From a virus (lineage: Duplodnaviria; Heunggongvirae; Uroviricota; Caudoviricetes), in the IMG/VR virus record IMGVR_UViG_3300049003_000001, positions 1-13,659 of that record: 13,659 nt of DNA, one strand, 5' to 3'. Of the stretch, positions 1,370-13,659 are shown piece by piece; positions within the stretch are counted from its first letter, which is position 1; each line of letters begins with the position of its first letter. Position numbers and translations under genes: made by a program. The notes below the pieces were generated by a model, which was given only the letters and a program-made list of their open reading frames with translations, searched no databases and was not told the DNA's origin.

Positions 1370-2707
1370 ATGAGCGTACAGAAGGCAATGTGGCAGGCAG
1401 ACGGTAAGACCGTCCGCTTGACAATGCCTCTTACGAAGGTAGACCAGGAAAACCGAATTGTTTCGGGTTTCGCAACGCTTGACAACATTGACACCGGCGA
1501 TGACGTAGTTCTCGCTGAGGCGTCAGCAGAGGCGTTCGGAAACTTCCGTGGAAACATCCGTCTCATGCACCAGCCAATCCCGGCGGGTAAGTTGGTTAAC
1601 TTCCGTGAAGATAACCTATACGACCCGCAGACCGGCAAGCTCTACAGCGGCATTTACGTTGACGTATATGTCTCCAAGGGCGCACCGGAAGTTTGGGAAA
1701 TGTGCTTGGACGGAACTCTTACAGGTTTCTCCATCGGTGGACAGGTCGTTGAGGCCGAATCTGAGTATGTCGCAGATGCCGGTAAGGTAATTCGCTACAT
1801 CAAGAAGTACGTCCTCATTGAACTTTCCCTTGTGGATAGCCCGGCCAACCAGCTATGCGACATTTTCAGCATTACCAAGGCAGCAGACGGCACGCTTACC
1901 GCGTCCGGCATGGCAATCGAGGTAGTAGCAGAAAACGTGTTCTGGTGTGGTACGGATCGAGTTGCTTTCACCTCACGCGATGAGGCGAAGGATTGCAACG
2001 TCTGCGGTAACACCACCGAAAATATCGGCTGGTTTGAAAGCGACGGCGGTGACGTAACTGAGAAGATGCGTTCCATCGTTGATGACTTTGCAAAGACTGT
2101 CGAGGGGAGGGAAAACACTATGGCAGACGAAATTGAGGTAACGGACGAAACCGCTGAGGTTGAGGCTCCGGAAGTTGTTGAAGAAGAGGTCGTTGAGGCG
2201 GCTGACGCTGAGGTAACTGAGGAAGAGGCCCCGGCTGAGGAAGTTGCAGAGGAAGAGGTCGTTGAGACCGAAACCGCTGAGACCGAGGAAGCGGCTGACG
2301 AAGAGGTTACCGAGGAAAGCGCGGAAGAGGCCGAGGAAGAGGTTGTCGAAACCCCTGACTTCGCTAAGATGTTCGCTGATCTTTCTGACACAATCACTAA
2401 GGCTTTGGAAGCAAATGCGGATGCGACCGCAGAAGAGTTGGTCAAGGTAAACGACCGAATCGCTGCGCTTGACACTGTTGCGACCAAGATTGACGAGCTT
2501 GCTGCAAGGCAGGCAGAGCTAGAGAAGAATATTGCCAATGTATCGGAGAAGGTTGAGAGCGTAGAGAAGACGTACTCAGCAGTCGAGAAGAGCGTTGGAA
2601 TTAAGAAGTCCGGTGACCTTGGCGGGTCGCAGGAAGAGACTAGGATTGAAAAGTCCAAGGGCTCAATTTGGGGTGGGCGCTTCTTCGGTTCAGTTGACAA
2701 CATCTGA
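1370..2707 (+). CDS. Capsid maturation (prohead) serine protease, HK97-type, fused to a C-terminal acidic/coiled-coil scaffolding domain
   Basis: 445 aa. N-terminal ~170 aa carry HK97-protease-like motifs 'RIVSGFATLDNID', 'IRLMHQP' (His), 'LTGFSIGG' (Ser), 'ELSLVDSPAN'. C-terminal half is very Glu/Ala-rich, then coiled-coil-like. Sits between portal and major capsid. Confidence 0.88.
   Translation: MSVQKAMWQADGKTVRLTMPLTKVDQENRIVSGFATLDNIDTGDDVVLAEASAEAFGNFRGNIRLMHQPIPAGKLVNFREDNLYDPQTGKLYSGIYVDVYVSKGAPEVWEMCLDGTLTGFSIGGQVVEAESEYVADAGKVIRYIKKYVLIELSLVDSPANQLCDIFSITKAADGTLTASGMAIEVVAENVFWCGTDRVAFTSRDEAKDCNVCGNTTENIGWFESDGGDVTEKMRSIVDDFAKTVEGRENTMADEIEVTDETAEVEAPEVVEEEVVEAADAEVTEEEAPAEEVAEEEVVETETAETEEAADEEVTEESAEEAEEEVVETPDFAKMFADLSDTITKALEANADATAEELVKVNDRIAALDTVATKIDELAARQAELEKNIANVSEKVESVEKTYSAVEKSVGIKKSGDLGGSQEETRIEKSKGSIWGGRFFGSVDNI
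2120..2707 (+). CDS. Probable nested in-frame scaffolding protein (195 aa) from an internal start in the protease gene
   Basis: In-frame ATG at 2120 (Met251, MADEIEV...) preceded by GAGGGGAGGG (2102-2111; GGAGG 9 nt before ATG), exactly where composition switches to acidic low complexity. Confidence 0.6.
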   Translation: MADEIEVTDETAEVEAPEVVEEEVVEAADAEVTEEEAPAEEVAEEEVVETETAETEEAADEEVTEESAEEAEEEVVETPDFAKMFADLSDTITKALEANADATAEELVKVNDRIAALDTVATKIDELAARQAELEKNIANVSEKVESVEKTYSAVEKSVGIKKSGDLGGSQEETRIEKSKGSIWGGRFFGSVDNI

Positions 2708-2753
2708 ACCTGTTCCACAACTCTCATTGTAACAACAAAAATCTAAATTCACT

Positions 2754-2761
2754 GGGAGGTG
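2754..2761 (+). promoter_or_regulatory. Strong ribosome-binding site of the major capsid gene
   Basis: GGGAGGTG upstream of ATG 2772 in an A/C-rich leader. Confidence 0.75.
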
Positions 2762-2771
2762 AAAATTCACA

Positions 2772-3779
2772 ATGAGTGACAACTTGCTAGAAAAGGTTAT
2801 TGTCTCTACTGAGATTGGTAACCCGGCCGGTTCTGGACTTTTGAAGCCAGAGCAGGCAGACCGATTCATCGACTACATGTGGGATGCAACCGTACTTGGT
2901 TCACAGGTCCGTTCCATCCGCATGCGCTCCAACGAGCTTGAAATCGACCGTATCGGAGTTGGAAAGCGTCTTCTTCGCGGTGCCGTTGAGGCTACCGACA
3001 CCGGAGAGAACGCGGGCGTACACTTCTCGAAGATTTCGATTACTACGAAGAAGCTACGTCTCGATTGGGAGCTTTCTACCGAGTCTCTAGAGGACAATCT
3101 AGAGGGAGAAGCGCTAGAAGACCACATTGCTCGCCTAATGGCAACTCAGGCCGGAAACGACCTAGAGGATCTTGCTATCAACGGTGACACTGGCTCTACC
3201 GACCCGCTTTTGAAGGTTTTCAACGGTTGGCGCAAGCAGGCCATCTCGGGCGATGCCCGTAACGACGGTGCATGCCACGTCGTTGACAACGGTGGTCAGC
3301 CGCTTAACCGCGCTGCTGCAAACAAGGCGCTAAAGGCTATGCCGCGTGTCTACATGCAGAAGCGTAACCAGCTAAAGTTCTTCACTGGTTCGAACTTGAT
3401 TCAGGACTACCTATACAGCATTGTAGAAGATGCTGGTCAGGGTGCCGGTCAGTTCTACGGTGACACGAACCGTACCGTCCGCACTGAGGGCGCTGCTGGT
3501 TTCTCGATGGGCTCGCTATTCGGCGTCCCGGTTCAGGAAGTTCCGTACTTCGATGAGACCCAGGCTGGCTCCTACTCAGGTGCCGCTGGTCAGCACGGTG
3601 AGCTTTGGCTAACCTTCCCGCAGAATCTCCTATGGGGAATCAAGCGTGAAATCAAGGTCTACCGCGCGTTCAAGGAGAAGAAGGACACGGTTGAGTACAC
3701 CATGTACTGCCGCGTTGGAACGCAGATCGAGAACACCGACGCATTCGTCGTTGTCAAGAACGTCAAGGTTTCTGCCTGA
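2772..3779 (+). CDS. Major capsid protein (HK97 fold)
   Basis: 335 aa. Motifs 'GLLKPEQADRFIDYM', 'KKLRLDWELSTESLEDN', 'MATQAGNDLEDLAINGD', 'LFGVPVQEVP', C-terminal 'AFVVVKNVKV'. Strong RBS, position after protease/scaffold, followed by a strong terminator. Confidence 0.93.
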   Translation: MSDNLLEKVIVSTEIGNPAGSGLLKPEQADRFIDYMWDATVLGSQVRSIRMRSNELEIDRIGVGKRLLRGAVEATDTGENAGVHFSKISITTKKLRLDWELSTESLEDNLEGEALEDHIARLMATQAGNDLEDLAINGDTGSTDPLLKVFNGWRKQAISGDARNDGACHVVDNGGQPLNRAAANKALKAMPRVYMQKRNQLKFFTGSNLIQDYLYSIVEDAGQGAGQFYGDTNRTVRTEGAAGFSMGSLFGVPVQEVPYFDETQAGSYSGAAGQHGELWLTFPQNLLWGIKREIKVYRAFKEKKDTVEYTMYCRVGTQIENTDAFVVVKNVKVSA

Positions 3780-3791
3780 TCGTAATTGACC

Positions 3792-3827
3792 AAGAGGGGC
3801 CGGGGAGGAAACTCCCCGGTCCTTTTT
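3792..3827 (+). terminator. Intrinsic (rho-independent) terminator after the major capsid gene
   Basis: Stem GGGCCGGGGAG (3797-3807) / CTCCCCGGTCC (3812-3822) with one G-U pair, GAAA tetraloop, then TTTTT (3823-3827). Confidence 0.9.
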
Positions 3828-3854
3828 GCGTCTGAATCAGAATATTGTTAGAAT
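3826..3854 (+). promoter_or_regulatory. sigma70-type promoter with extended -10, overlapping the terminator U-tract
   Basis: TTGCGT (3826-3831), 17 nt, TAGAAT (3849-3854) with TG at 3846-3847; downstream RBS AAAGGAG (3864-3870) and ATG 3878. Confidence 0.7.
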
Positions 3855-3877
3855 CAAGGAAACAAAGGAGATTTGAA

Positions 3878-4285
3878 ATGGCTACCCAGCTAAGCGATTA
3901 CACGAAGGACGAGCTTCTAGCCTACGCCGAGGAATTCGGTGTCGAGGTTAAGTCCGCCATGACCAAGGCCGCTATCATTGCAGAATTTGATAATGATGGC
4001 GTGGACGTTGCTCTTATTAAGGGCCTCCACCCGGAGCAGGTCGAAGAGGACGTTGAGGAAGACGCGCCGGTCGAGATTGAGGAAGAGGCCGACGACGATG
4101 ACGACGCCGACCTAGTTCTAATCAAGATGACCCGCCTGAACGCTTCCTACGAGGTTCGCGGATACAAGTTCAATCGTGAGCACCCGTTCGCTCTCGTGAA
4201 GGAGAACGACGCGGATTACTTGATTGAGGTCGAGGGCGGATTTGCTATGGCGTCCCCGAAGGAAGCCAGGGCTTTCTACTCATGA
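3878..4285 (+). CDS. Hypothetical virion-module protein (135 aa): HeH/Rho-N-like N-terminus, acidic linker, compact C-terminal domain
   Basis: True start is ATG 3878 (RBS AAAGGAG 7 nt upstream), not the track's TTG 3845. 'LSDYTKDELLAYAEEFGVEVKSAMTKAAIIAEF' fits a helix-extension-helix pattern. Confidence 0.7.
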   Translation: MATQLSDYTKDELLAYAEEFGVEVKSAMTKAAIIAEFDNDGVDVALIKGLHPEQVEEDVEEDAPVEIEEEADDDDDADLVLIKMTRLNASYEVRGYKFNREHPFALVKENDADYLIEVEGGFAMASPKEARAFYS

Positions 4286-4554
4286 TGTTCACCGCCTCTA
4301 AGGGTCAGCCGTTCGCTGAGAAGTTCGAATTCAAAAACTCCCAGGGACAGCCGTTGGTTGTTCCGAAGGGTGAATTTGTGCTGACCCTAGAGCGCGGGGA
4401 TTTGGTGAGGTTCCCTCAGTTGCGTCTACAGCGCAATGCAGTTATTTGGAACATGACCGCAGAAGAAACAGCGGCGTTGGAGTACAGCACCATGTACTTC
4501 CACCTGACCTTCGACGGACAGGAAATCGCACGTGGAATTCTGCGAGTAAACTAA
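4282..4554 (+). CDS. Small beta-sandwich structural/adaptor protein (BppU-N / LtfC-like)
   Basis: ATGA overlap with the upstream stop. Pattern 'KGQPFAEKFEFKNSQGQPL...MTAEETAALEYSTMYFHLTF...RGILRVN' parallels the next gene. Confidence 0.6.
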   Translation: MMFTASKGQPFAEKFEFKNSQGQPLVVPKGEFVLTLERGDLVRFPQLRLQRNAVIWNMTAEETAALEYSTMYFHLTFDGQEIARGILRVN

Positions 4555-4567
4555 GGAGTAATACATA

Positions 4568-4954
4568 ATGGCTGACATTATTTTCCCAGGAGACGTGCCG
4601 GTAGACAACGTTGGCACGTCCAACCTGCCGTCGAACCTTGACCTGACCATTTGGCAGGGCGACAAGCAGGAATTCATCGTAAAGGTGGAGACGGACACTG
4701 GTGTGCCGATTGACCTCACGGGCACGACGCCTTCTGCGGTTATTCGTCAGTCGTTTACGGCTCCGACCTCTTACCCGTTCGCCTGCACAGTGCAGGGCAC
4801 AGACAGCAATGAGGTAAGGCTTTACCTGAGCAGCGCAATTTGCGAAACCATCCCGGCCGGGGATTACGTCTGGAATTTCCAGATTGCCGGTGGAGATGGC
4901 GACGTTCGCACCTACCTCGCGGGTGACGTTAAGGTATACGCGCAGGTAGACTGA
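4568..4954 (+). CDS. Beta-sandwich structural/adaptor protein (BppU-N / LtfC-like)
   Basis: RBS AAGGAG 4553-4558. Characteristic pattern 'LDLTIWQGD...DTGVPIDLTG...AVIR...VRLYLS...DYVWNFQI...RTYLAGDVKV'. Confidence 0.7.
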   Translation: MADIIFPGDVPVDNVGTSNLPSNLDLTIWQGDKQEFIVKVETDTGVPIDLTGTTPSAVIRQSFTAPTSYPFACTVQGTDSNEVRLYLSSAICETIPAGDYVWNFQIAGGDGDVRTYLAGDVKVYAQVD

Positions 4955-6546
4955 TGGCTGGCCCAAAGGTAATTACAGTAACATCACCGGCTGACCCGGT
5001 GCAGGTTCTTACTGTCCAGCTTCCGGGCGCTCCGGGTCCGGCTGGCCCGCAGGGTCCGGCTGGTTCGGTCAATGTTCTAACTATTGGTACTGTGACTACT
5101 CGTACACCAGGCACGAGCGCGACCGCCACTATTTCAGGCGTCGCTCCGAATCAGGTGTTGAATCTAGGAATTCCGGCGGGTGTTCAGGGTGCAATTGGCC
5201 CGTCTAACACCTTGACGATTGGAACCGTGAACACGCTGACGGAGGGACAGGCGGCTACGGCTACCTTGACCGGCGTATCCCCTAATCAGGTTCTCAATCT
5301 AGGAATTCCGCGCGGCTACGGAGTCCGTCCGGGTGGCTTGACCGGAGATATTCTAATCAAGCTATCCGCGACCGACCACGACACCGGATGGCACACGCCA
5401 AGCTCAGATGCAGTCGCCGGGGCGGTTGTGAAGCGCCATGCGGATAATTACTTCTCCGTGGGCACCATCTACCTACAGAACCCAGCGGCAAATCCAACTG
5501 AGGCCACTCGCAAGGATTACGTGGATGCTCAGCGCGACGCCGCAAAGACATATGCGGACGGCCTCGATGCCACTCAGAAGACCTATGTGGATAACGGACT
5601 GTCTGGCAAGGCGAATACCGTTCACACCCACGTGGCGACTGATATCTCTGATTCGACCGCCACGGGTCGTTCGGTGCTAAAGGCAGCAGATGCCCCAACC
5701 GCACGCGCGGCAATTGGAGCGGGCACGTCAAGCCTTGCAATCGGTACCACGAGCACGACAGCAAAGGCGGGAGACTACCAGCCAGCGTCTACGAATATCT
5801 CGGACGCTACGGCCACGGGTCGCTCGCTAATTACCGCTGCCGACGCTCCGACCGCCCGTACCGCAATTGGCGCGGGAACATCGAGCTTGGTTATTGGTAC
5901 GACCAGCACAACGGCGGCTGCCGGTGACCACCTTCACTCCATTTATGGACGTGACATGGGAACGGGAACGTCGCTTCCGGCTTCCGGAAACCGTCGCGGA
6001 GATGTGTATTACCACACCGGACTTACCTCGCTCATGGTCTACACCGGATCGGCATGGCGTCAGGTCGGAATTTCCACCGTAGCGGACGCCACGGCTCGCG
6101 CCGCTATTTCGACTAACTACTCAACCCTTCTCCACTCCGGATTTGAGGTTATCGAGACCGACACAACCCGTACATGGAGTTGGAGCGGAACGGTATGGCA
6201 GTGGGTCGGCGGGGGTGTTGATCCTGCCGCGTGGACTTTGCCTACTCTTAACTCCCCGTGGACGAACTACTTGTACCCCGATTATCAGCAGGCGCGATAC
6301 AGAAAGACCGGCTCAGGCATGGTGTATATCGAAGGTCTGATTAAGGGCACGGGTACCGCCGTAGCCAGCGGCACGGTTGTCTTTACGCTACCGCTTGGAT
6401 ACCGACCACCTAACCGTTTGCTATTCTCATCCATCTCCAACACCACGGTCTCTAGCCGTTTGGATGTTACGTCTACCGGCGATGTTGTGCTTATGTCGGG
6501 TGACCAGGGCTTCTACTCGATCAATTGCTCATTCTCGACAGTGTGA
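4954..6546 (+). CDS. Collagen-containing fibre / minor structural protein with a C-terminal receptor-binding-like head
   Basis: 530 aa, TGATG-coupled to the upstream gene. Short G-X-Y stretch, two 'LTIGTV...PNQVLNLGIP' repeats, 'ATRKDYVD', two 45-aa 'DISDSTATGRS...' repeats, C-terminal 'YRKTGSGMVYIEGLI...FTLPLGYRP' fibre-head pattern. Confidence 0.8.
   Translation: MAGPKVITVTSPADPVQVLTVQLPGAPGPAGPQGPAGSVNVLTIGTVTTRTPGTSATATISGVAPNQVLNLGIPAGVQGAIGPSNTLTIGTVNTLTEGQAATATLTGVSPNQVLNLGIPRGYGVRPGGLTGDILIKLSATDHDTGWHTPSSDAVAGAVVKRHADNYFSVGTIYLQNPAANPTEATRKDYVDAQRDAAKTYADGLDATQKTYVDNGLSGKANTVHTHVATDISDSTATGRSVLKAADAPTARAAIGAGTSSLAIGTTSTTAKAGDYQPASTNISDATATGRSLITAADAPTARTAIGAGTSSLVIGTTSTTAAAGDHLHSIYGRDMGTGTSLPASGNRRGDVYYHTGLTSLMVYTGSAWRQVGISTVADATARAAISTNYSTLLHSGFEVIETDTTRTWSWSGTVWQWVGGGVDPAAWTLPTLNSPWTNYLYPDYQQARYRKTGSGMVYIEGLIKGTGTAVASGTVVFTLPLGYRPPNRLLFSSISNTTVSSRLDVTSTGDVVLMSGDQGFYSINCSFSTV
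5071..5316 (+). repeat. Two 37-aa 'LTIGTV...IPxG' repeats (135-nt period)
   Basis: NVLTIGTVTTRTPGTSATATISGVAPNQVLNLGIPAG (5071-5181) and NTLTIGTVNTLTEGQAATATLTGVSPNQVLNLGIPRG (5206-5316); both contain the 15-mer AATCTAGGAATTCCG. Confidence 0.9.
5641..5928 (+). repeat. Tandem 45-aa repeat (153-nt period) in the fibre gene
   Basis: 5641-5775 vs 5794-5928: 37/45 residues identical by manual alignment. Confidence 0.9.
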
Positions 6547-6575
6547 TTGCCTAATAATTTGTAGAAAGGTATAAT
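6547..6575 (+). promoter_or_regulatory. sigma70-type promoter, leaderless or very short leader
   Basis: TTGCCT (6547-6552, directly after the TGA stop), 17 nt, TATAAT (6570-6575), 8 nt, ATG 6584. The only purine run (GAAAGG) is 14 nt from the ATG. Confidence 0.72.
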
Positions 6576-6583
6576 CCAACCAA

Positions 6584-8224
6584 ATGACTTTGCCATTCGA
6601 CTCAGATGAAATCGACGTAATCGTCGTCCAGGCCCCTTCGGTCGCTCCGGTACTAACCGTAAAGGTTCCGGGTCCGCAGGGGCCACCGGGCGTTTTCGAG
6701 ATGGGTCCGGTGTCCACGGGGTTGCCGGGAACCGATGCAATTGCCGTAACGACCGACGTTAACGGCATTAAGACCGTATCCTTCACCATTCCGCGAGGTA
6801 ACCCAGGCGCGGACGCCCACTTCACGCTAGGTACCGTGAATACGCTTTCTCCGGGCACCCCGGCGTCAGCGAGCATTACCGGAACCGCTCCGAACTATAC
6901 CCTAAACCTCAGCATTCCAAAGGGAGACCAGGGTATTCAGGGCATCCAGGGAATTCAGGGAATCCAGGGTCCGCAGGGAATTGTGGGTCCGAAGGGTGAT
7001 CCGGGTGCGGGCATCTCGATTGCCGGAAGCGTTGCCACATACGCCAATCTTCCGACCGGATTGACCTCGGCAGACGCGGGTAAGGCATACCTCGTAAATT
7101 CAGATGGAAAGCTTTACATTTGGTCCGGCACGTCCTTCCCGACGAATGGAAATGGAACGGTCTTCGTCGGACCGGCAGGCCCGGCTAATACGCTAACGCT
7201 TGGCACGGTCACTACAGGTGCGCCGGGCACAGCGGCGAGCGCGACCGTTACGGGCACCGCCCCAAATCAGACTCTTACCTTGACGATTCCTCGCGGAGAC
7301 GTAGGAGCGACAGGCGCGACGGGTGCCACGGGTCCGGCAAATACCCTGACGATTGGCACGGTCACCACCGCCGCCGCTGGCGGCTCAGCCGCCGCAACAA
7401 TTACCGGGGCATCTCCGAACCAGACCTTGAATCTAACAATTCCTAAGGGCGCTGACGGGGCTAACGGTGCCACTGGTGCTCAGGGACCGGCAGGAACGCC
7501 GGGCGCGGGAATCCTAGTTCTAGGACCGACCGACCCAATCCCAACAGGAACACCGGCCAACACTGTCATCTACCGACCAGCGGTTAAGCAGAATACCTAT
7601 TTTTGGGGTAGCGGTACCTCCTTCCCAGCGGCCGGTCTCGCCACCGGAGACACCTACATTCACACCGGATTGCAGTCGCTCATGCGCTACAACGGTGCGG
7701 CTTGGCGTCAGGTGGAACCGGCCGAGTTGGCGAACAACACAGCGCGCGACGCGATTTCGACAAACTACTCGTCATTGCTCTACAGGGGCTTCACGGTTCT
7801 GGCTGCTGACAGCGGTCGATTCTACAAGTGGAATGGCACGTCCTGGCAGTTCGCCTCGGGTGGAGCGGGGCCGGAAGAATTCGTATTCCCATACAACGCC
7901 AATGTTGTCACCTTCGACCCGGCATGGACTAACCTAAAGTATTGGAAGGATTCTGATGGCTACGTGCGTATCTCAGGAATGTCGAAATTGGCGGTTGCGG
8001 TCAACGCTGGCGTTCAGCTTGCGATGGGCACAATGCCGGTGGGTTACAGGCCGTCTCTAGTAGCCATGATGAATGGAGTTTTGAACACCACGACCGCCAA
8101 CGTTTCCTACCCTGGCCGTATGGACTTCAATTCTGATGGCTCCGTTGTGTTTGTGAACAACTCTGGTCAGACCGCCCCAATCAACAGTTGGTTCAATATG
8201 TCTGGTTTCTACAAGGCGGCCTAA
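6584..8224 (+). CDS. Collagen-like fibre / minor structural protein with a C-terminal receptor-binding-like head
   Basis: 546 aa. G-X-Y runs (GDQGIQGIQGIQGIQGPQGIVGPKGDPG; GATGATGATGP), three clear and one degenerate 'LT(I/L)GTV...IP(K/R)G' repeats, an 86-aa module paralogous to the previous gene, C-terminal 'YWKDSDGYVRISG...GTMPVGYRP'. Confidence 0.82.
   Translation: MTLPFDSDEIDVIVVQAPSVAPVLTVKVPGPQGPPGVFEMGPVSTGLPGTDAIAVTTDVNGIKTVSFTIPRGNPGADAHFTLGTVNTLSPGTPASASITGTAPNYTLNLSIPKGDQGIQGIQGIQGIQGPQGIVGPKGDPGAGISIAGSVATYANLPTGLTSADAGKAYLVNSDGKLYIWSGTSFPTNGNGTVFVGPAGPANTLTLGTVTTGAPGTAASATVTGTAPNQTLTLTIPRGDVGATGATGATGPANTLTIGTVTTAAAGGSAAATITGASPNQTLNLTIPKGADGANGATGAQGPAGTPGAGILVLGPTDPIPTGTPANTVIYRPAVKQNTYFWGSGTSFPAAGLATGDTYIHTGLQSLMRYNGAAWRQVEPAELANNTARDAISTNYSSLLYRGFTVLAADSGRFYKWNGTSWQFASGGAGPEEFVFPYNANVVTFDPAWTNLKYWKDSDGYVRISGMSKLAVAVNAGVQLAMGTMPVGYRPSLVAMMNGVLNTTTANVSYPGRMDFNSDGSVVFVNNSGQTAPINSWFNMSGFYKAA
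6929..6982 (+). repeat. 9-bp tandem repeat encoding collagen (QGI)n
   Basis: CAGGGTATT CAGGGCATC CAGGGAATT CAGGGAATC CAGGGTCCG CAGGGAATT. Confidence 0.9.
7187..7450 (+). repeat. Two 37-aa 'LTxGTV...IPxG' repeats separated by a collagen spacer (153-nt period)
   Basis: 7187-7297 and 7340-7450; a further copy at 6818-6925. Confidence 0.88.
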
Positions 8225-9777
8225 TGACAATTTCTAAGGTTGCTCAGCTAGCCACGAACAACGCCTCCGGGAGCACTTTCACGGTTCCGGCAGGCGTTGC
8301 CGCGCAGCATGCCGCCATTCTGGTTTTGGGCAGTGCCAGCATTGGGGACGTGTGGACGATTCCGGGTTGGACGAGCCTTATTTCTAATCCGGCCGGTGTC
8401 AACAACATGTCGTTTCAGGTATTTACACGAAACGGCGGGCTGGTTGCTGGAAACACATTCACCATCGGGTACAACACGGGAGCCCCGGCTACTCAGCTAA
8501 CCGCAGTGTGGTATGACACCGGAGCACGCGCTATCGATATCGTTGGCACCCCGTGGACTCGCAATGGAGTTTCTTCGGTGGCGGTTACCGCCTCATCGAT
8601 TACCACCCCGGTAGCGACTGACGTAATTCTGATTTCGCAGGAGCGTACGACGGCCAGCGGAACGACGGTCACCGTGTCTCCGACCGCGACGCAGGACGTA
8701 TATCAGGAATCAAATACGTCAACGTTCCCGACGAACAACACCGACACGTCGCACTACATCGGACATTTCGCACAGTCGGCAGCGGGAGCCACCGGGGATT
8801 ATACTGCCACTTATTCCGGCGGGTCCGGTAACGGAGTGGGCGTGCAGCTTAGCATCGCCCCGCCGCCTAAGGCTGCCGCATACGTTGAAACATTCCCTGG
8901 CACCACGGTAGACACGTCAAGGTATATTCTCTCTGCCGCAGGCTCCGTATCAATCGTCAACGGCAGGCTGGCGATTAGGGCTGATGGTATGGCACCTGAT
9001 GCCCTCACCGCCGCGAACCTAGACCTCACCGGATCGACGCTATGTCTGGAAGTAATTCCTGCCGATGGCTCACTTGATCCTACCGATTACACCATTGTTT
9101 CGATGTACCGAGTGGGTTCAGGCGCTAGCAATTACTTTCAGTTCAGCATGTCCGTGCTCAATAGCACTTTCAATATTGATACGTCGGCCGGAAGCGTAGC
9201 GGCACTAACCTACAATGCCACTAATCATCGGTGGGTTCGCTTCCGTCATGTGAGCGGTACCACGGTGGCATTTGACGCCTCCCCCACCGGATTGAACGGG
9301 ACGTGGACCGAGCTTGGCCGCAAGGACGTTGGTTTCGCGCTAAACAACATGAAGCTAGATATGGTTGCCAGCACGGGAATGGCTACCGGAGGTTGGGCGT
9401 ACTTCGACAATATCAACAACCCACCACCGGGCCAGCTTTACACGGCTCAGTTCACAATTTGGGACGGAACGAACGAGCTTACGTTCGACGGCTACCTGCC
9501 GGACGGTAATTACAATTTCTACCTACCGTCCAACGATCCGACCACATTCATCATCCTCCGCACCTCGCCGCTATACGTCGGTGCGAGCGATGCCATTGTT
9601 AACACGTCCCTCTACCCATATCCGGAATACGCTCCGTACCCGAGCACGTCGGTCTACCCGGCGGCTACGAACGAATATCCGGCGGACATTACTTATCCGG
9701 GCGATACGAGCTACCCGACCTCGATGTACCCGAACAGCTATCAGTACCCAGGCACATATTACCCAGGAGGAAACTAA
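8224..9777 (+). CDS. Minor structural protein (517 aa): beta-rich N-domain, LamG/ConA-like middle domain, C-terminal Tyr-Pro repeats
   Basis: Start ATG 8224 overlaps the upstream TAA (TAATG), preferred over the track's TTG 8188. 'YNATNHRWVRFRHVSGTTVAFDASP.G...WTELG...YFDNIN' resembles lectin-like beta-sandwich domains in phage structural proteins. Confidence 0.7.
   Translation: MTISKVAQLATNNASGSTFTVPAGVAAQHAAILVLGSASIGDVWTIPGWTSLISNPAGVNNMSFQVFTRNGGLVAGNTFTIGYNTGAPATQLTAVWYDTGARAIDIVGTPWTRNGVSSVAVTASSITTPVATDVILISQERTTASGTTVTVSPTATQDVYQESNTSTFPTNNTDTSHYIGHFAQSAAGATGDYTATYSGGSGNGVGVQLSIAPPPKAAAYVETFPGTTVDTSRYILSAAGSVSIVNGRLAIRADGMAPDALTAANLDLTGSTLCLEVIPADGSLDPTDYTIVSMYRVGSGASNYFQFSMSVLNSTFNIDTSAGSVAALTYNATNHRWVRFRHVSGTTVAFDASPTGLNGTWTELGRKDVGFALNNMKLDMVASTGMATGGWAYFDNINNPPPGQLYTAQFTIWDGTNELTFDGYLPDGNYNFYLPSNDPTTFIILRTSPLYVGASDAIVNTSLYPYPEYAPYPSTSVYPAATNEYPADITYPGDTSYPTSMYPNSYQYPGTYYPGGN
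9613..9774 (+). repeat. Tyr-Pro (YP) repeat, ~6-residue period
   Basis: 10 YP dipeptides and 13 Tyr in the last 54 aa (YPYPEYAPYPSTSVYPAATNEYPADITYPGDTSYPTSMYPNSYQYPGTYYPGGN). Confidence 0.9.
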
Positions 9778-9780
9778 GAA

Positions 9781-10170
9781 ATGAGTTACAGCAAGCAGAC
9801 GTGGGTGGACGGCGTGAACGGGAATACTCCGATCAACGCCGCTCGCCTCAACAACATGGAAGACGGAATTGCCGCTGCCAACGCGGCCATCCCATTTTTG
9901 AACGGTGTGCAGAACGCGGCGGGACTAAAGGTTGTCACGGGCATTATCAATGCGGTGTTCAGCAATATCTCATACGCAATTCCAACCCCAACGTGGACGG
10001 GATTCACCGCCGCGCCCGTGGTCGTGGCGGTTCCCTCATCGGGTAACACCTATGCGACGTATTGCGAGATTGATAGCGTCACGGCCACCGGATGCTGGAT
10101 TGTCGTCCGATCGGCTGGTGCGAACCTTACCGCGACCATCCCGGTCCACTACATCGCTATTGGCATCTGA
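9781..10170 (+). CDS. Short fibre/adhesin paralogue 1 (shared N-terminal module + H-type-lectin/gp53-like C-terminal domain)
   Basis: RBS AGGAGG 9765-9770. N-term MSYSKQTWVDG...TPINAARLNNMEDGI; C-term 'GFTAAPVVVA...VTATGCWI...VHYIAIG'. Confidence 0.75.
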   Translation: MSYSKQTWVDGVNGNTPINAARLNNMEDGIAAANAAIPFLNGVQNAAGLKVVTGIINAVFSNISYAIPTPTWTGFTAAPVVVAVPSSGNTYATYCEIDSVTATGCWIVVRSAGANLTATIPVHYIAIGI

Positions 10171-10181
10171 TTGAAAAATAA
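10166..10181 (+). repeat. 16-bp intergenic direct repeat, copy 1 (copy 2 at 12288-12303)
   Basis: TCTGATTGAAAAATAA is identical at 10166-10181 and 12288-12303; each spans a TGA stop followed by TTGAAA. Confidence 0.85.
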
Positions 10182-10205
10182 TGATTAAGGAAGGAGAATA
10201 GCATT

Positions 10206-10970
10206 ATGACGTATACAAAGCAGACTTGGAGTGATGGGCAGGCAGGCGCTACGCCCATCACTGCCGCGCGCCTTAATTACATTGAGGCTGGTATCGAGCA
10301 GGTCGCCGGGGTAGTCATGACCAAGGCTCAGCGTGTGGCGCTCTCTGGAATGACTACCGGATATCGAGTATACGAATCCGATACAGGTTTCAGGCTTACT
10401 TACGACGGCACACGATTCCGCTACGACGGAGACCGTGTGGCCGTTGCAACCATCGCCGCCCGCGATTTGCTCACTCCTTACGACAATTTGCTTGCATTTG
10501 TTCAGTCCTCCACGCAGGCTGATGGTGGTGAGTGGGTTTACAACAGCGGCACAAGCTCGTGGATTAAGTTGCATACGTGGAATTACCTTCTCTACAGCAC
10601 TAGTTACTCTTCGTCACTCCCGCTTACCGGCACCCCGGCAGCTATTCCAAGTGGCGTATACAACGTCACAACCCCCGCCGGACGCATCGTGGACGCGGAA
10701 TTCCATTGTCCTCGATGGGGAATTGGTTCCGCCTCCACCGCTTTTATCCGAATGTATGGAAACCCGAGTTCGAATATTCTCGATGGCGCTGAATACTCTA
10801 CGGCAACGGGAGTCGGCATCGCCATTCCGGTAAAGCTTTTCGGTCAGTGGGTCGGCACTGGTGCTGCCGTGCCCCTAGGAGTTCAGTATTGGTGTTCGGC
10901 TGGTAGCTCGGATATTCAGTCCTCGGGAACCAGCGGTAGCCCGATTTACATTAGGTACAAGGTAAGGTAA
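10206..10970 (+). CDS. Short fibre/adhesin paralogue 2 (shared N-terminal module, two 'AR..L..G..V...DT' modules, beta-rich C-terminal head)
   Basis: RBS AAGGAG 10191-10196. N-term MTYTKQTWSDG...TPITAARLNYIEAGI. Confidence 0.75.
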   Translation: MTYTKQTWSDGQAGATPITAARLNYIEAGIEQVAGVVMTKAQRVALSGMTTGYRVYESDTGFRLTYDGTRFRYDGDRVAVATIAARDLLTPYDNLLAFVQSSTQADGGEWVYNSGTSSWIKLHTWNYLLYSTSYSSSLPLTGTPAAIPSGVYNVTTPAGRIVDAEFHCPRWGIGSASTAFIRMYGNPSSNILDGAEYSTATGVGIAIPVKLFGQWVGTGAAVPLGVQYWCSAGSSDIQSSGTSGSPIYIRYKVR

Positions 10971-10983
10971 GGGAGAATAGATT

Positions 10984-11682
10984 ATGTCATATACAAAGCA
11001 GACTTGGAATAACGATTCAGTCGGGGGCACCCCGATTAGTGCCACGCGTCTCAACAACATCGAGGCCGGTATCTTCAACGCCGACTTCCAGACTTGCACG
11101 TCCACTACCCGCCCATCCACCGGATTGTTCGATGGAATGCGAATTTTCGAGACGGACACGAAGGCGTGGGGAATTTACGACGCCACTCTTACTAAGTGGG
11201 TAATGTTCGATACACAGTGGCAGAGTTGGGCGGTCAATCTCACTCTCGGTGCCACCGCCGCGACCACCGACCTAGGCACTGGAATCGTTATCGGCAACGG
11301 CGGTCTGGCGGGTCGCTTCTTCCGCACGGGTCGAAAGATTGATTTGCAGGGGTACTTTGCGGTCGGAAGCACCACTAACTACAGCGGCAAGAATGGATAC
11401 ATTCTCGTGGATTATCCGACTGGCTACCGCCCTGCCTCAGCAATCTCAGTATTCGGGGCAAACTCAGTCGGTGGGCCTGCTCGAATGAATGGTGGTTCGG
11501 GAATTTCGGCAGGATGGTGTATCAACCGATACGACGCCACCTCGACAAACCGCCGAATGTGGTTTGTTGTGTCTGCCAATGAAAACGTTGTTGGGGCTGG
11601 AATCAGTACAGCAAACAACATTACTGCGTCTGGTCACTGGCTGAACTGGTCTAACACCTACGAGACGGCGTTTGAGTCGTGA
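10984..11682 (+). CDS. Short fibre/adhesin paralogue 3
   Basis: RBS GGGAG 10971-10975. N-term MSYTKQTW...TPISATRLNNIEAGI, then 'CTSTTRP...GMRIFETDTK', head with 'GNG...GRFFRTGRKI...YPTGYRP'. Confidence 0.75.
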   Translation: MSYTKQTWNNDSVGGTPISATRLNNIEAGIFNADFQTCTSTTRPSTGLFDGMRIFETDTKAWGIYDATLTKWVMFDTQWQSWAVNLTLGATAATTDLGTGIVIGNGGLAGRFFRTGRKIDLQGYFAVGSTTNYSGKNGYILVDYPTGYRPASAISVFGANSVGGPARMNGGSGISAGWCINRYDATSTNRRMWFVVSANENVVGAGISTANNITASGHWLNWSNTYETAFES

Positions 11683-11704
11683 TTAGAAAAGAGATGATTA
11701 ACTA

Positions 11705-12292
11705 ATGAGCTATACAAAGCAGACGTGGGTTGACGGAGCCACCCCGCTCAGTGCCACGCGCATGAATTACATGGAGGCTGGCATTGCCGCTGCCGCCTCT
11801 GTCATTTGCACGTCCACGACAAGGCCGTCCGCCGGGCTGTTCGCCGGAATGACTATCTTCGAAACTGACACAAAGGCTTCCGCCGTCTACGACGGCACGA
11901 CGTGGCAGTACACCACCCCTCAGGTGTCGGCTCAGGCGTTGATTAACGGCTGGGCGAATTGGGCCGATGGACATACCACCGATAACCCTGTTTATGAGAA
12001 GTTGCAGATCACTCGATTGGGCACCCGCCGCTTTATGAACGGGATGATTACCGCTGCCGTTGCGGCAAACACTTCCAGCGTCTTTTGCACCCTGGCCGCT
12101 GGCGACCGACCGACGCACCGACTCAGCCGTCGCCAGGTGGGGTTGGATGGATACAACTCCAATGTTTCGCCACTTCGAATCGACATTGATCCGGCAACCG
12201 GCAGTGTGACGTACACCTGTGTGGCGGCAATCGCTTTGCAGACTGATTACGTCTATCTGGACTTTTCCTGGAATGTCGCAAACAACGTCTGA
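11705..12292 (+). CDS. Short fibre/adhesin paralogue 4
   Basis: N-term MSYTKQTWVDGATPLSATRMNYMEAGI, 'CTSTTRP...GMTIFETDTK', head 'INGWANW...CTLAAGDRP...LRIDID'. RBS is weak. Confidence 0.75.
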   Translation: MSYTKQTWVDGATPLSATRMNYMEAGIAAAASVICTSTTRPSAGLFAGMTIFETDTKASAVYDGTTWQYTTPQVSAQALINGWANWADGHTTDNPVYEKLQITRLGTRRFMNGMITAAVAANTSSVFCTLAAGDRPTHRLSRRQVGLDGYNSNVSPLRIDIDPATGSVTYTCVAAIALQTDYVYLDFSWNVANNV

Positions 12293-12321
12293 TTGAAAAA
12301 TAACTAAGGGAGAAATACAAT
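12293..12321 (+). promoter_or_regulatory. sigma70-type promoter, probably leaderless
   Basis: TTGAAA (12293-12298, directly after the TGA stop), 17 nt, TACAAT (12316-12321), 6 nt, ATG 12328; same geometry as the 1335-1370 site. Confidence 0.7.
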
Positions 12322-12327
12322 AGGGAT

Positions 12328-13203
12328 ATGAGCGTATACCGTGACACAAATGCCAGCGTAGTCTTTGAGCACCCGCATCCGGGTCCATTGACCGCTACCG
12401 TCTACCGTGACGGCATTTCTCTTACTGCCTTTGAGGATTTGACTCCGACTGATGGAAAGTACACCGTACCGCTGGCCTGGCAGCAGACCGCCTACGACGG
12501 CACGTTGAGCATTGTGTGGACCGACACCACCGATATCACTTTTGAGCGCACACAGGAAGTTGAGGTAGTTACCCCAATCGCTTCCTTCTCTCGTCTTAGG
12601 ACGATTTTCGATGACGCCAACGTGCCATCCGGAGACCTTGCGGACATTGAGGCCAGCGTTCGTGTAGTTATCGAATCCTACACCGGCCAGAAGTTCGGGT
12701 ATTTCGGAAAGGGTAGTCGCAATATTCGTGGCACCGGGGCGCAGAGGGTCTTGCTCGACACCCGCCTGAACAGGCTCACCTCCATCAACGGAGTTTTGCC
12801 AAACACGGTCAGGGTCGGTGCTGACGGCTACTCCCTGATCGTCTCAAACGACGTATTGCTAGAGCTTAGGGAGGCCCCTCCGGAGGAATTCATTCCCGAC
12901 GACAACGGGGTTATCCGTGTGCCAGCATGGTATGTGAAGAACTTCAACGCTAGTGCGACCTACACCGTGACAGGAGAATGGGGCTACGCCGCAGTACCGG
13001 AGGATATTCAGGAGGCGGCGCTTTTGCTGGCAAATGACTACATCACCGGAGATTCGGGATACCGCGACCGTTACCTAGAAATTCTAAAGATTCAGCAGGA
13101 CAGCTTCACGTACCACCCTGGCGCATTCCGAGGAACCGGAAATGCCCGTGCTGACTTGCTGTTGGGTCCGTACCGCCGTAAGACAGGAATGACTCTCCTT
13201 TGA
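12328..13203 (+). CDS. Head-to-tail adaptor (connector) protein with an extra N-terminal beta-sandwich domain
   Basis: 291 aa. 'ASVRVVIESYTGQKF', 'YTVTGEWGYAAVPEDIQEAALLLANDY', 'GTGNARADLLLGPYRR' are typical of gp6/gp15-like adaptors; position precedes a stopper-like gene. Confidence 0.8.
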   Translation: MSVYRDTNASVVFEHPHPGPLTATVYRDGISLTAFEDLTPTDGKYTVPLAWQQTAYDGTLSIVWTDTTDITFERTQEVEVVTPIASFSRLRTIFDDANVPSGDLADIEASVRVVIESYTGQKFGYFGKGSRNIRGTGAQRVLLDTRLNRLTSINGVLPNTVRVGADGYSLIVSNDVLLELREAPPEEFIPDDNGVIRVPAWYVKNFNASATYTVTGEWGYAAVPEDIQEAALLLANDYITGDSGYRDRYLEILKIQQDSFTYHPGAFRGTGNARADLLLGPYRRKTGMTLL

Positions 13204-13659
13204 GCAAGTCGCTCGTAGCCGCTCGTTTCACCATGTGGGCAACCGTAATCCCGAGGTTGGTCGCAGGAGACAGCGCGTCTCCGGTAGCTGACGAGGCCGG
13301 GCATTACGAGTTCGTGTCCGATCCGGATTCCGGAGAGGTGAAGACGGTTTGGGTGCCAGAGGGAAATGACCCGCAGGGATTTGCGCCGGGAGGTCAGATG
13401 GCTACCCGCAACTTTGACATTAAGTGCTACGCCCGCTCGTACACCGCTCTAGGCTACCGTTCCAGCGCTAACCGCGAAATCATGGTGCAGCAGGACTATC
13501 AGGCTATCGAATCCATTCAGTTCGATTTCCCGAAGGACGTTCTACTCAATCGCCAGACGTTCGTGACTAATATCCGTAGCCACAAGAACCTGCCAGACTA
13601 CCTCTGGCTACACGAGGACAGCGGCCAGCCGATTGTGTGGGAATGCCAGGGTGTTTCCC
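13200..13659 (+). CDS. Probable head closure / head-to-tail stopper protein, 3'-truncated (absent from the ORF track)
   Basis: TTG at 13200 overlapping the adaptor stop (TTGA); frame open to the window end: MSKSLVAARFTMWATVIP...DPDSGEVKTVW...FDIKCYAR...TNIRSH...IVWECQGVS. Alternative ATG at 13233. Product call rests on gene order and a beta-rich pattern. Confidence 0.6.
   Translation, partial: MSKSLVAARFTMWATVIPRLVAGDSASPVADEAGHYEFVSDPDSGEVKTVWVPEGNDPQGFAPGGQMATRNFDIKCYARSYTALGYRSSANREIMVQQDYQAIESIQFDFPKDVLLNRQTFVTNIRSHKNLPDYLWLHEDSGQPIVWECQGVS

Follow-up and report, generated by a model that had tools for sequence, protein, structure and literature searches.

A putative, optional collar-and-fiber gene cassette upstream of the adaptor gene in a Stanwilliamsviridae-like siphophage

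Introduction

Why should a siphophage with a tail-tip module of its own carry a block of adhesin-like genes between its major capsid and head-to-tail adaptor genes? The question is raised by the first 13,659 nt (the whole stretch analyzed here, hereafter called the window) of a 77.7-kb linear viral contig, IMG/VR record IMGVR_UViG_3300049003_000001, whose completeness is estimated at ~60%. The source phage is an uncultured relative of large Streptomyces phages, a Stanwilliamsviridae-like siphophage. In plus-strand order, the window contains the genes for the portal (cut at its 5' end), the protease/scaffold, the major capsid protein, and a protein of 146 amino acids (aa), followed by a nine-gene island at positions 4282-12292 and the gene for a 291-aa adaptor. 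An earlier, sequence-only reading of the window proposed that this island builds a multicomponent head or neck appendage.

To our knowledge, detailed descriptions of accessory adhesion structures outside the tail tip are limited to a few phages, represented by the lactococcal neck passage structure (NPS), the T4 whiskers, and the head fibers of phi29 and P68. A limited literature search returned no published description of such a cassette in Stanwilliamsviridae, or of such a structure in phages of filamentous actinobacteria. From a comparison of related loci and from structure models, we consider it moderately probable that the island is an optional, horizontally moving collar-and-fiber adhesin cassette, with the neck as the most likely place of the encoded structure.

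Results

The slot upstream of the adaptor gene varies in content among relatives

All nine open reading frames (ORFs) that the sequence-only reading had placed between the capsid region and the adaptor gene are present on the plus strand (Table 1). They are tightly packed, with overlaps of 1 to 4 nt or gaps of 3 to 37 nt, and we regard them as real genes because each has conserved homologs in related contigs. The slot between the gene for the 146-aa protein (g146) and the adaptor gene is conserved in relatives, and its content ranges from one to seven cargo genes among the cassette-bearing loci, as counted across 14 loci (designated by L numbers where needed). In MindFlayer (cluster BE2) and Rhodococcus phage NiceHouse the slot is empty, and the g146-like gene leads straight to the adaptor gene. 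A collar gene corresponding to the 128-aa gene of the island (g128) is accompanied by one cargo gene in Comrade, Patelgo, and L016 and by two in Muntaha, Enygma, and L011. L014 has three cargo genes, including one for an esterase-like protein; L013 has six, one of them encoding a T4 Gp10_C domain; and L012, L015, and L022 have seven, in the order seen in the window. A "phage tail tip domain" and a BclA_C-like head also occur among the cargo of relatives. By this synteny comparison, the block is dispensable and variable in content. The left border gene, g146, is kept in all relatives, the cassette-less ones included; its homologs are Muntaha gp24 (39% identity) and, by position, MindFlayer gp51 and NiceHouse gp62.

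Enygma and MindFlayer provide the closest comparison, as these phages belong to the same genus, share the host strain, and have collinear backbones at 85 to 90% nucleotide identity. Their collinearity is interrupted from immediately behind the g146-like gene to a point ~250 nt into the adaptor gene. The cassette thus constitutes a unit that is self-contained, can be transferred, and is dispensable. Comparison of the adaptors, Enygma gp54 (L008:10778-11683) and MindFlayer gp52 (L017:7001-7870), revealed that the former is chimeric, with the joint at a conserved "VVTP" stretch. Its N-terminal 85 aa share 67 to 68% identity with the cluster BK phages and 30% with MindFlayer, and the remainder is BE-like, with 79% identity to MindFlayer. 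These alignments indicate that the cassette of Enygma arrived together with the peripheral immunoglobulin (Ig)-like N-terminal domain of the adaptor in one event and, more generally, that the cassette is optional and horizontally exchanged.

Two further features of the relatives were noted. Behind its adaptor and stopper genes, L014 has a second gene that matches Pfam Phage_capsid (598 aa; L014:16961-18757), as well as two extra genes between portal and protease, an odd arrangement that looks like a duplicated or inserted head gene. We also considered a link of the cassette to the MindFlayer/MiniFlayer neck attachment (PMC10690885) and rejected it: MindFlayer is without the cassette, so the fiber-like material at its neck does not stem from these genes.

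Small island proteins and the adaptor have predicted Ig-like domains

The description of the two small proteins at the head of the island as beta-sandwiches was borne out by models. The AlphaFold2 (AF2) model of g128, built from 43 of 113 metagenome homologs (predicted local distance difference test [pLDDT] score of 85), shows an Ig-like sandwich after ~20 N-terminal residues that are disordered yet conserved. T5 p132 (7qg9_R) was ranked first both by Foldseek and by a Foldseek-independent aligner (Z 12.6, root mean square deviation of 2.2 Å over 110 aa, Foldseek E 9.4e-7, template modeling [TM] score of 0.68). It was followed by the ring domain of Douge BppU (Z 10.8), the Ig domain of the R4C adaptor (Z 8.9), the neck collar proteins of Sf14 and P74-26 (Z 8.5 each; 9c39_I, 9oab_Ga; 9mt4_G with Foldseek E 4e-6), whose scores lie near the Ig-fold background, and the N-terminal domain of TP901-1 BppU (4v96_AA, Z 7.5; 3uh8_A, Z 6.5). 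The Bas63 collar, the GP4 fiber-tail-adaptor, and baseplate proteins of 80alpha and NF5 matched as well.

At the sequence level, g128 matched phrog_1084 and, at E 3.4e-6, phrog_3304, annotated "L-shaped tail fiber protein assembly," and tblastn detected cyanophage genes carrying this label at 29 to 31% identity; a PDB search with the g128 sequence gave no significant match. A search for relatives with g128 alone yielded three loci. In every locus read, the stop codon of the g128-type gene lies at or inside the start-codon region of the first fiber gene. Among the cultured phages searched, homologs of the collar gene were observed in BK phages and Enygma; weak matches came from T4-like cyanophages and a small number of further marine phages.

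For the 90-aa protein g90, the Atlas model (pLDDT 0.88) has clusters of BppU N-terminal domains as neighbors (TM 0.82 to 0.85), and further neighbors are clusters with Pfam LtfC, BppU_N, Phage_connect_1, or head-completion domains. The protein itself gave no Pfam or PHROG match. It was found at 40 to 62% identity in the uncultured relatives L011 to L016; its gene is confined to the uncultured lineage and absent from cultured BK phages. Judging from the models, g90 and g128 are predicted to belong to the fold class that phages use for fiber-anchoring rings.

The adaptor at the right border, for which 461 homologs were found, likewise gave a confident AF2 model (pLDDT 88). Its core matches the DT57C (E 5e-6) and T5 (E 2e-5) adaptors, and the model also matches neck proteins of Mycofy1, the gene transfer agent (GTA), and Milano. 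The N-terminal domain resembles the P74-26 collar, the R4C adaptor, and BppU. Complex prediction for the adaptor with g128 scored 0.00 against a mark of 0.32 and, run without controls, is evidence neither way. The lineage is mosaic, and the adaptor of the window has a higher identity to phages of cluster BE (~40%) than to those of BK (~32%). In L015, the adaptor was called as two ORFs of 72 aa (18331-18549) and 215 aa (18591-19238), broken at the boundary between Ig domain and core. The split may be genuine or may result from a frameshift or from misassembly.

Models and alignments of the cargo proteins point to adhesins

Two long fibers follow g128, at 31.6% identity to each other over their full length. 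Both begin with a short beta-strand segment leading into "PG.(Q)GP.G," and the same start is found in the first cargo gene of every relative. In long fiber 1, this N-terminal anchor is followed by a short collagen run, a pair of ~40-aa modules, the "ARxAIGAG" repeat in two copies, a neck, and a jelly-roll head. Its residues 4 to 222 share 62% identity with the first fiber of L012, from which its head differs, and its sequence had no PDB match at E 0.1 or better, solved head fibers included. In long fiber 2, which has orthologs in L012 and L015 (54% identity), three beta modules separate the four collagen runs, and a junction motif and a head complete the protein. The sequence-only reading had called both proteins collagen fibers. 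Short G-X-Y runs are indeed present, with 5 and 3 triplets per run in the 530-aa protein and 3, 10, 5, and 7 in the 546-aa protein; however, they are interrupted by the ~40-aa beta modules, and the Pfam Collagen family (PF01391) matched the 546-aa fiber with 17.9 bits against a threshold of 27.2 and the 530-aa fiber not at all. Fibers of relatives exceed this threshold.

The junction motif that follows the last collagen run has an internal position in the 546-aa fiber (residues 292 to 333; 7457-7582), and the same motif forms the very C terminus of Muntaha gp26 (L001:18226-19188). By eye, Enygma gp52 (L008:9384-9971) ends in a similar-looking stretch. Stalk and head may thus be separate gene products in the cultured phages that are fused in the window.

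As the sequence-only reading had noted, an LP.GYRP-type motif marks the heads of four island proteins. They are exactly those of 530, 546, 232, and 195 aa, and the motif is positioned 45 to 82 residues before the C terminus. The heads of these proteins align through the neck motif and the LP.GYRP jelly-roll and, by this alignment, appear to be one diverged family; a weak BclA_C match was obtained at the orthologous position in L022. The proposed count of at least six distinct binding domains is therefore too high. The remaining heads are the double LamG-like domain of the 517-aa protein, a head with a weak H-lectin-like match below the cutoff, and one head of unassigned family. Pfam searches with the nine island proteins returned just two matches, Collagen and H_lectin, both subthreshold.

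The YP-repeat protein of 517 aa starts at ATG 8224, in agreement with the starts in relatives, and not at TTG 8188. It carries 10 YP dipeptides (residues 464 to 514) within its last 54 residues, as well as two ConA/LamG-like domains in its Atlas model, which matches LamG and GH43_C2 ConA-like clusters (residues 214 to 404, target-normalized TM 0.81). No Pfam, PHROG, or PDB sequence match was obtained for this protein; orthologs are present in L012 (53%) and L015 (29%).

The four short fibers are paralogous, sharing an N-terminal module ("M.YTKQTW...TP..A.RLN.IE.GI") at 42 to 67% identity. Short fiber 1, with an ortholog in L015 at 83% identity, gave the weak H_lectin match (E 0.0047), and the L015 ortholog of short fiber 2 is 70% identical. 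The Atlas model of short fiber 3, for which 10 homologs were found, resembles the heads of collagen- or C1q-tipped phage fibers (TM 0.5 to 0.66). Short fiber 4 shares 52% identity with short fiber 3 over residues 1 to 93 and had no full-length ortholog among the relatives. In a set of 18 short fibers drawn from five contigs, the mean identity of the 36-aa module is 60%, and the remainders fall into nine unrelated BLAST clusters, a clear pattern in these sequences that suggests one anchor with exchangeable heads. Altogether, with predicted jelly-roll heads of the C1q/BclA type and LamG-like domains, the cargo looks adhesin-like.

A protein with a Tyr/Pro-rich tail and terminal "...YPGG(N/Y)" precedes the M.YTKQTW short-fiber genes in the window (9613-9777), L012 (13679-15244), L015 (14245-15840), and L013 (12000-12233), the last of these encoding a 77-aa miniprotein that is almost the YP tail alone. 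L022 has a 515-aa protein in the same position (13593-15140), the tail of which was not read. This adjacency, and adjacency only, hints at a docking hub.

Table 1. Features of the island and its flanking genes in the window
Feature	Positions	Strand	Evidence
Major capsid protein	2772-3779	+	phrog_1623
g146, left border gene, 146 aa, outside the cassette	3845-4285	+	phrog_9487
g90, 90-aa Ig-like protein, putative second ring/anchor-type module	4282-4554	+	Atlas model, BppU_N/LtfC-like fold
g128, 128 aa, putative collar/fiber-anchor protein	4568-4954	+	phrog_1084; T5 p132-like fold
Long fiber 1, 530 aa	4954-6546	+	phrog_5207, phrog_5711, phrog_1954; LPLGYRP head
Long fiber 2, 546 aa	6584-8224	+	phrog_4120 (E 9e-38), many tail-fiber PHROGs; MPVGYRP head
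517-aa protein, two ConA/LamG-like jelly rolls (predicted) and Tyr-Pro tail ending YPGGN	8224-9777	+	Atlas model
Short fiber 1, 129 aa, shared N-terminal module and small head	9781-10170	+	Residues 1-37 match phrog_5711 and phrog_2012
Short fiber 2, 254 aa, shared N-terminal module and head of unassigned family	10206-10970	+	PHROG match, paralogy
Short fiber 3, 232 aa, shared N-terminal module, neck, and YPTGYRP jelly-roll head	10984-11682	+	PHROG match, paralogy, Atlas model
Short fiber 4, 195 aa, shared N-terminal module, neck, and diverged AAGDRP head	11705-12292	+	Paralogy, head alignment
Head-to-tail adaptor, 291 aa, N-terminal Ig-like domain (1-82) and T5-type core	12328-13203	+	phrog_442 (E 1e-29)

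The contig encodes a separate tail-tip module

Downstream of the window, the same contig carries stopper-like and neck genes and the genes for the major tail protein, for a chaperone, and for a tape measure protein of 1912 aa, followed by minor tail proteins of 133, 1086, 101, 118, and 822 aa with matches to tail PHROGs. With this module located behind the tape measure gene, the phage has an ordinary tail-tip set of its own, and the island is separate from it, as the sequence-only reading had supposed. Residues ~1586 to 1833 of the tape measure protein (16752-22490 of the contig, outside the window) match the endolysin family phrog_971 (E 3e-12), suggesting a putative cell wall hydrolase domain inside this protein.

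A megablast search of the window against cultured phages matched ~430 nt of the capsid gene alone, at 77% identity, in Streptomyces phages Muntaha and Wakanda (Stanwilliamsviridae, Loccivirinae, cluster BK), and no cultured phage was close to the window at the DNA level. The protein encoded by g146 comprises an N-terminal helix-hairpin of ~37 residues and an acidic linker. The ~37-residue segment also matches PHROGs labeled endonuclease VII and Arc-like repressor and is thus SAP/Rho_N-like; in NiceHouse, an endonuclease VII gene is located just upstream of the g146 homolog.

A promoter and terminator scan of positions 2600 to 13659 returned 7 and 11 sites, respectively, against 6.7 and 10.3 expected, which is the chance level. 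An identical 16-nt string, TCTGATTGAAAAATAA, occurs in the spacers after the 129-aa (10166-10209) and 195-aa (12288-12331) genes. Sigma-70-like matches were noted in these two spacers and in that before the 546-aa gene (6547-6575), in a region that overall is at chance level.

Discussion

How might the products of this island act together? According to its fold, g128, probably with g90, would form a ring of ~12 subunits around a tubular part of the virion, and the N-terminal strands of trimeric fibers would be held in this ring, as T5 p132 holds the pb1 side fibers. The most likely seat of the ring would be the neck, where it would surround the adaptor, stopper, or terminator. The two long fibers, the double LamG-like protein, and the four short fibers would display different heads and provide reversible multivalent preadsorption to actinobacterial surface polymers, with the essential receptor-binding and penetration machinery staying on the tail tip. 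Of the appendage claimed by the sequence-only reading, the anchor-ring fold, the adhesin-like cargo, and the separate block are supported; its placing at the head or neck, like its possible glycan, spore, or matrix targets, is a proposal. We favor the neck because of gene position and because of the existence of neck collars of the same fold: the position, directly upstream of the adaptor gene and apart from the tail-tip cluster, is invariant, and such collars are found in the siphophage P74-26 and in myophages. The cotransfer of the Enygma cassette with the peripheral domain of the adaptor and the similar logic of the lactococcal NPS also speak for the neck.

Several points weigh against this interpretation. 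We infer the presence of the island proteins in virions, and their neck site, from genes and models. The top fold match, T5 p132, is a tail-tip ring, as are the matching proteins of Douge, TP901-1, 80alpha, and NF5. Ig-like sandwiches are common, and matches with Z scores of 7 to 9 are near the search background. Pfam BppU_N and LtfC match neither g128 nor g90, and hhalign detected no sequence homology among g90, g128, and the adaptor's N-terminal domain, which have the fold class alone in common. The joint in the Enygma adaptor falls where conservation first resumes behind a hypervariable domain, so that the cotransfer of cassette and domain may reflect the convenience of recombination. Moreover, the adaptor's N-terminal domain in the lineage of the window is nearer to that of the cassette-less MindFlayer (44%) than to those of the BK phages (26%), and it is therefore not specific to collar-bearing phages.

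The same ring fold is found at the neck in Bas63, Sf14, and P74-26, and T5, Douge, and TP901-1 have it at the tail tip. The encoded structure might instead consist of side tail fibers in the manner of T5, with a g128 ring girdling either the distal tail protein or the distal part of the tail tube, the fibers hanging from the tail tip, and the genes being merely oddly placed. This arrangement, which we rate as possible though rather unlikely, would agree with the strongest fold match, T5 p132 (Z 12.6), and with those next in line, Douge BppU-NRD (Z 10.8) and the baseplate proteins of 80alpha, NF5, and TP901-1, as well as with the phrog_3304 match (E 3e-6), the annotation of the g128 homolog as "tail fiber" in some phages (Enygma gp51, Patelgo gp30), and the predominance of "minor tail protein" families among the PHROG matches of the fibers. 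However, the ring gene lies inside the tail-tip cluster in T5, Douge, and TP901-1, whereas here it is upstream of the adaptor gene in 14/14 loci. Furthermore, a full tail-tip module follows the tape measure gene, no p140-like, decoration-less tube paralog was seen adjoining g128, and the Enygma cassette came with the adaptor's N-terminal domain.

Attachment to the capsid, in which the Ig-like proteins would bind capsomers and the fibers would stand over the head or portal vertex in the manner of phi29 gp8.5 or P68, appears improbable, and it is the last in our order of placings, after the neck and the T5-style tail. phi29 gp8.5 and SPP1 gp12 are accessory trimeric or collagen-like proteins that are encoded beside the capsid gene and thought to aid adsorption; they bind capsomers directly, without a ring-type Ig anchor. 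The island genes do follow the major capsid gene, and the "ARxAIGAG" region of long fiber 1 matches phrog_5711, "head fiber protein" (E 8.5e-31), along with Mycobacterium and Gordonia phage proteins annotated as head fiber or capsid decoration. We rejected this label as evidence for a capsid location, since it is a similarity-based annotation and the labeled mycobacteriophage genes sit between the tail tube and chaperone genes. Neither the phi29 gp8.5-type nor any other solved head fiber gave a detectable sequence match in the PDB search with long fiber 1, and there was no capsid-surface anchor among the g128 structural matches listed. It is highly improbable that the proteins have a nonvirion role, being released at lysis, or that the island is a nonfunctional accretion of fiber gene fragments. 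The head of the 195-aa protein, which is without an ortholog, could be taken this way, but the nine frames are intact and tightly packed inside a late structural operon, orthologs at 47 to 83% identity (29% for the LamG-like protein in L015) occur in the same order on several contigs, and the anchor fold and fiber architecture are typical of virion parts.

Coming back to the neck-borne collar, it is tempting to speculate on a more elaborate form, which we consider doubtful: a single collar bearing a mixed crown of up to seven adhesins, in which the two long fibers would plug into the ring and the LamG-like protein would serve as a hub, its YP tail docking the shared module of the four short fibers. 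If true, a siphophage would possess, where its head and tail join, an array of adhesins that is combinatorial and swappable.

Of the known systems, the cassette most resembles the nonessential collar-whisker of dairy phages, with many more parts. In function and logic, the lactococcal NPS and the T5 pair of p132 and pb1 come closest to it, and by sequence it is not clearly a member of either. The NPS combines a collar of BppU_N fold at the connector with a trimeric fiber, the carbohydrate-binding or esterase-like tips of which form seven groups; this structure is nonessential and was found in 73/113 phages (PMC6669499). In the 936/Skunavirus and P335 (TP901-1) groups, the NPS has a proposed collar module of BppU_N fold, which the models of g128 and g90 resemble, and it shares with the cassette variable and exchanged tips, separation from the receptor-binding protein of the baseplate, and dispensability, with presence or absence among close relatives. 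It differs in that ring domain, coiled-coil stalk, and tip form one polypeptide with a single fiber, whereas the cassette has separate 90- and 128-aa putative ring proteins and up to seven fiber or lectin genes, collagen-interrupted stalks, and a possible hub. No sequence similarity was detected between the two, and the location at the connector is putative for the cassette.

T5 p132 (LtfC) is, like g128, a small stand-alone Ig-like protein encoded beside a fiber gene. It forms a dodecameric collar within which the N termini of the three L-shaped fibers are intertwined, and it is missing from virions when the fiber is truncated; the fibers themselves are dispensable and bind surface sugars reversibly (PMC10038345). 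However, p132 encircles the tube-like p140 ring at the tail tip and is encoded among tail genes, whereas g128 lies between the capsid and adaptor genes, and T5 has one fiber type against the seven cargo genes of the cassette.

The ring domain of Douge BppU is a 12-mer around the distal tail protein (PMC13033339). At the neck, the Sf14/Bas63 collar is a whisker-bearing 12-mer seated on the adaptor/head-completion interface (PMC12609058), and the P74-26 gp112 collar surrounds the terminator with lobes that some virions lack (PMC12407722). These two collars and that of R4C share the Ig-like fold with the cassette, at g128 Z scores of 8.5 to 8.9, which are near background (PMC12609058, PMC12407722, PMC10276861), and R4C and the window both have an adaptor with an N-terminal Ig-like domain. 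The solved neck collars are 12-fold rings on adaptor, head-completion, or terminator proteins, that of P74-26 being substoichiometric or dispensable. In contrast to the predicted collagen-type trimers of the cassette, the Bas63 whiskers are dimers on a collar "rope," and the collars of P74-26 and R4C carry no fibers.

In GenBank, the genes of the cassette are labeled "hypothetical protein," "unknown function," "minor tail protein," or "tail fiber." Our interpretation would correct annotations of the collar gene as "hypothetical protein" or "tail fiber" and the use of "head fiber protein" on similarity alone. The cassette is family-wide, optional, and highly modular. Its seven cargo genes, and the nine head types that 18 short fibers display, make it unusually rich. 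Enygma and MindFlayer constitute a natural plus/minus pair on Streptomyces mirabilis NRRL B-2400, by which the proposal can be directly tested. This makes the effect of the extra fibers on adsorption to hyphae, spores, and extracellular matrix, as well as the exchange of modules, accessible to experiment.

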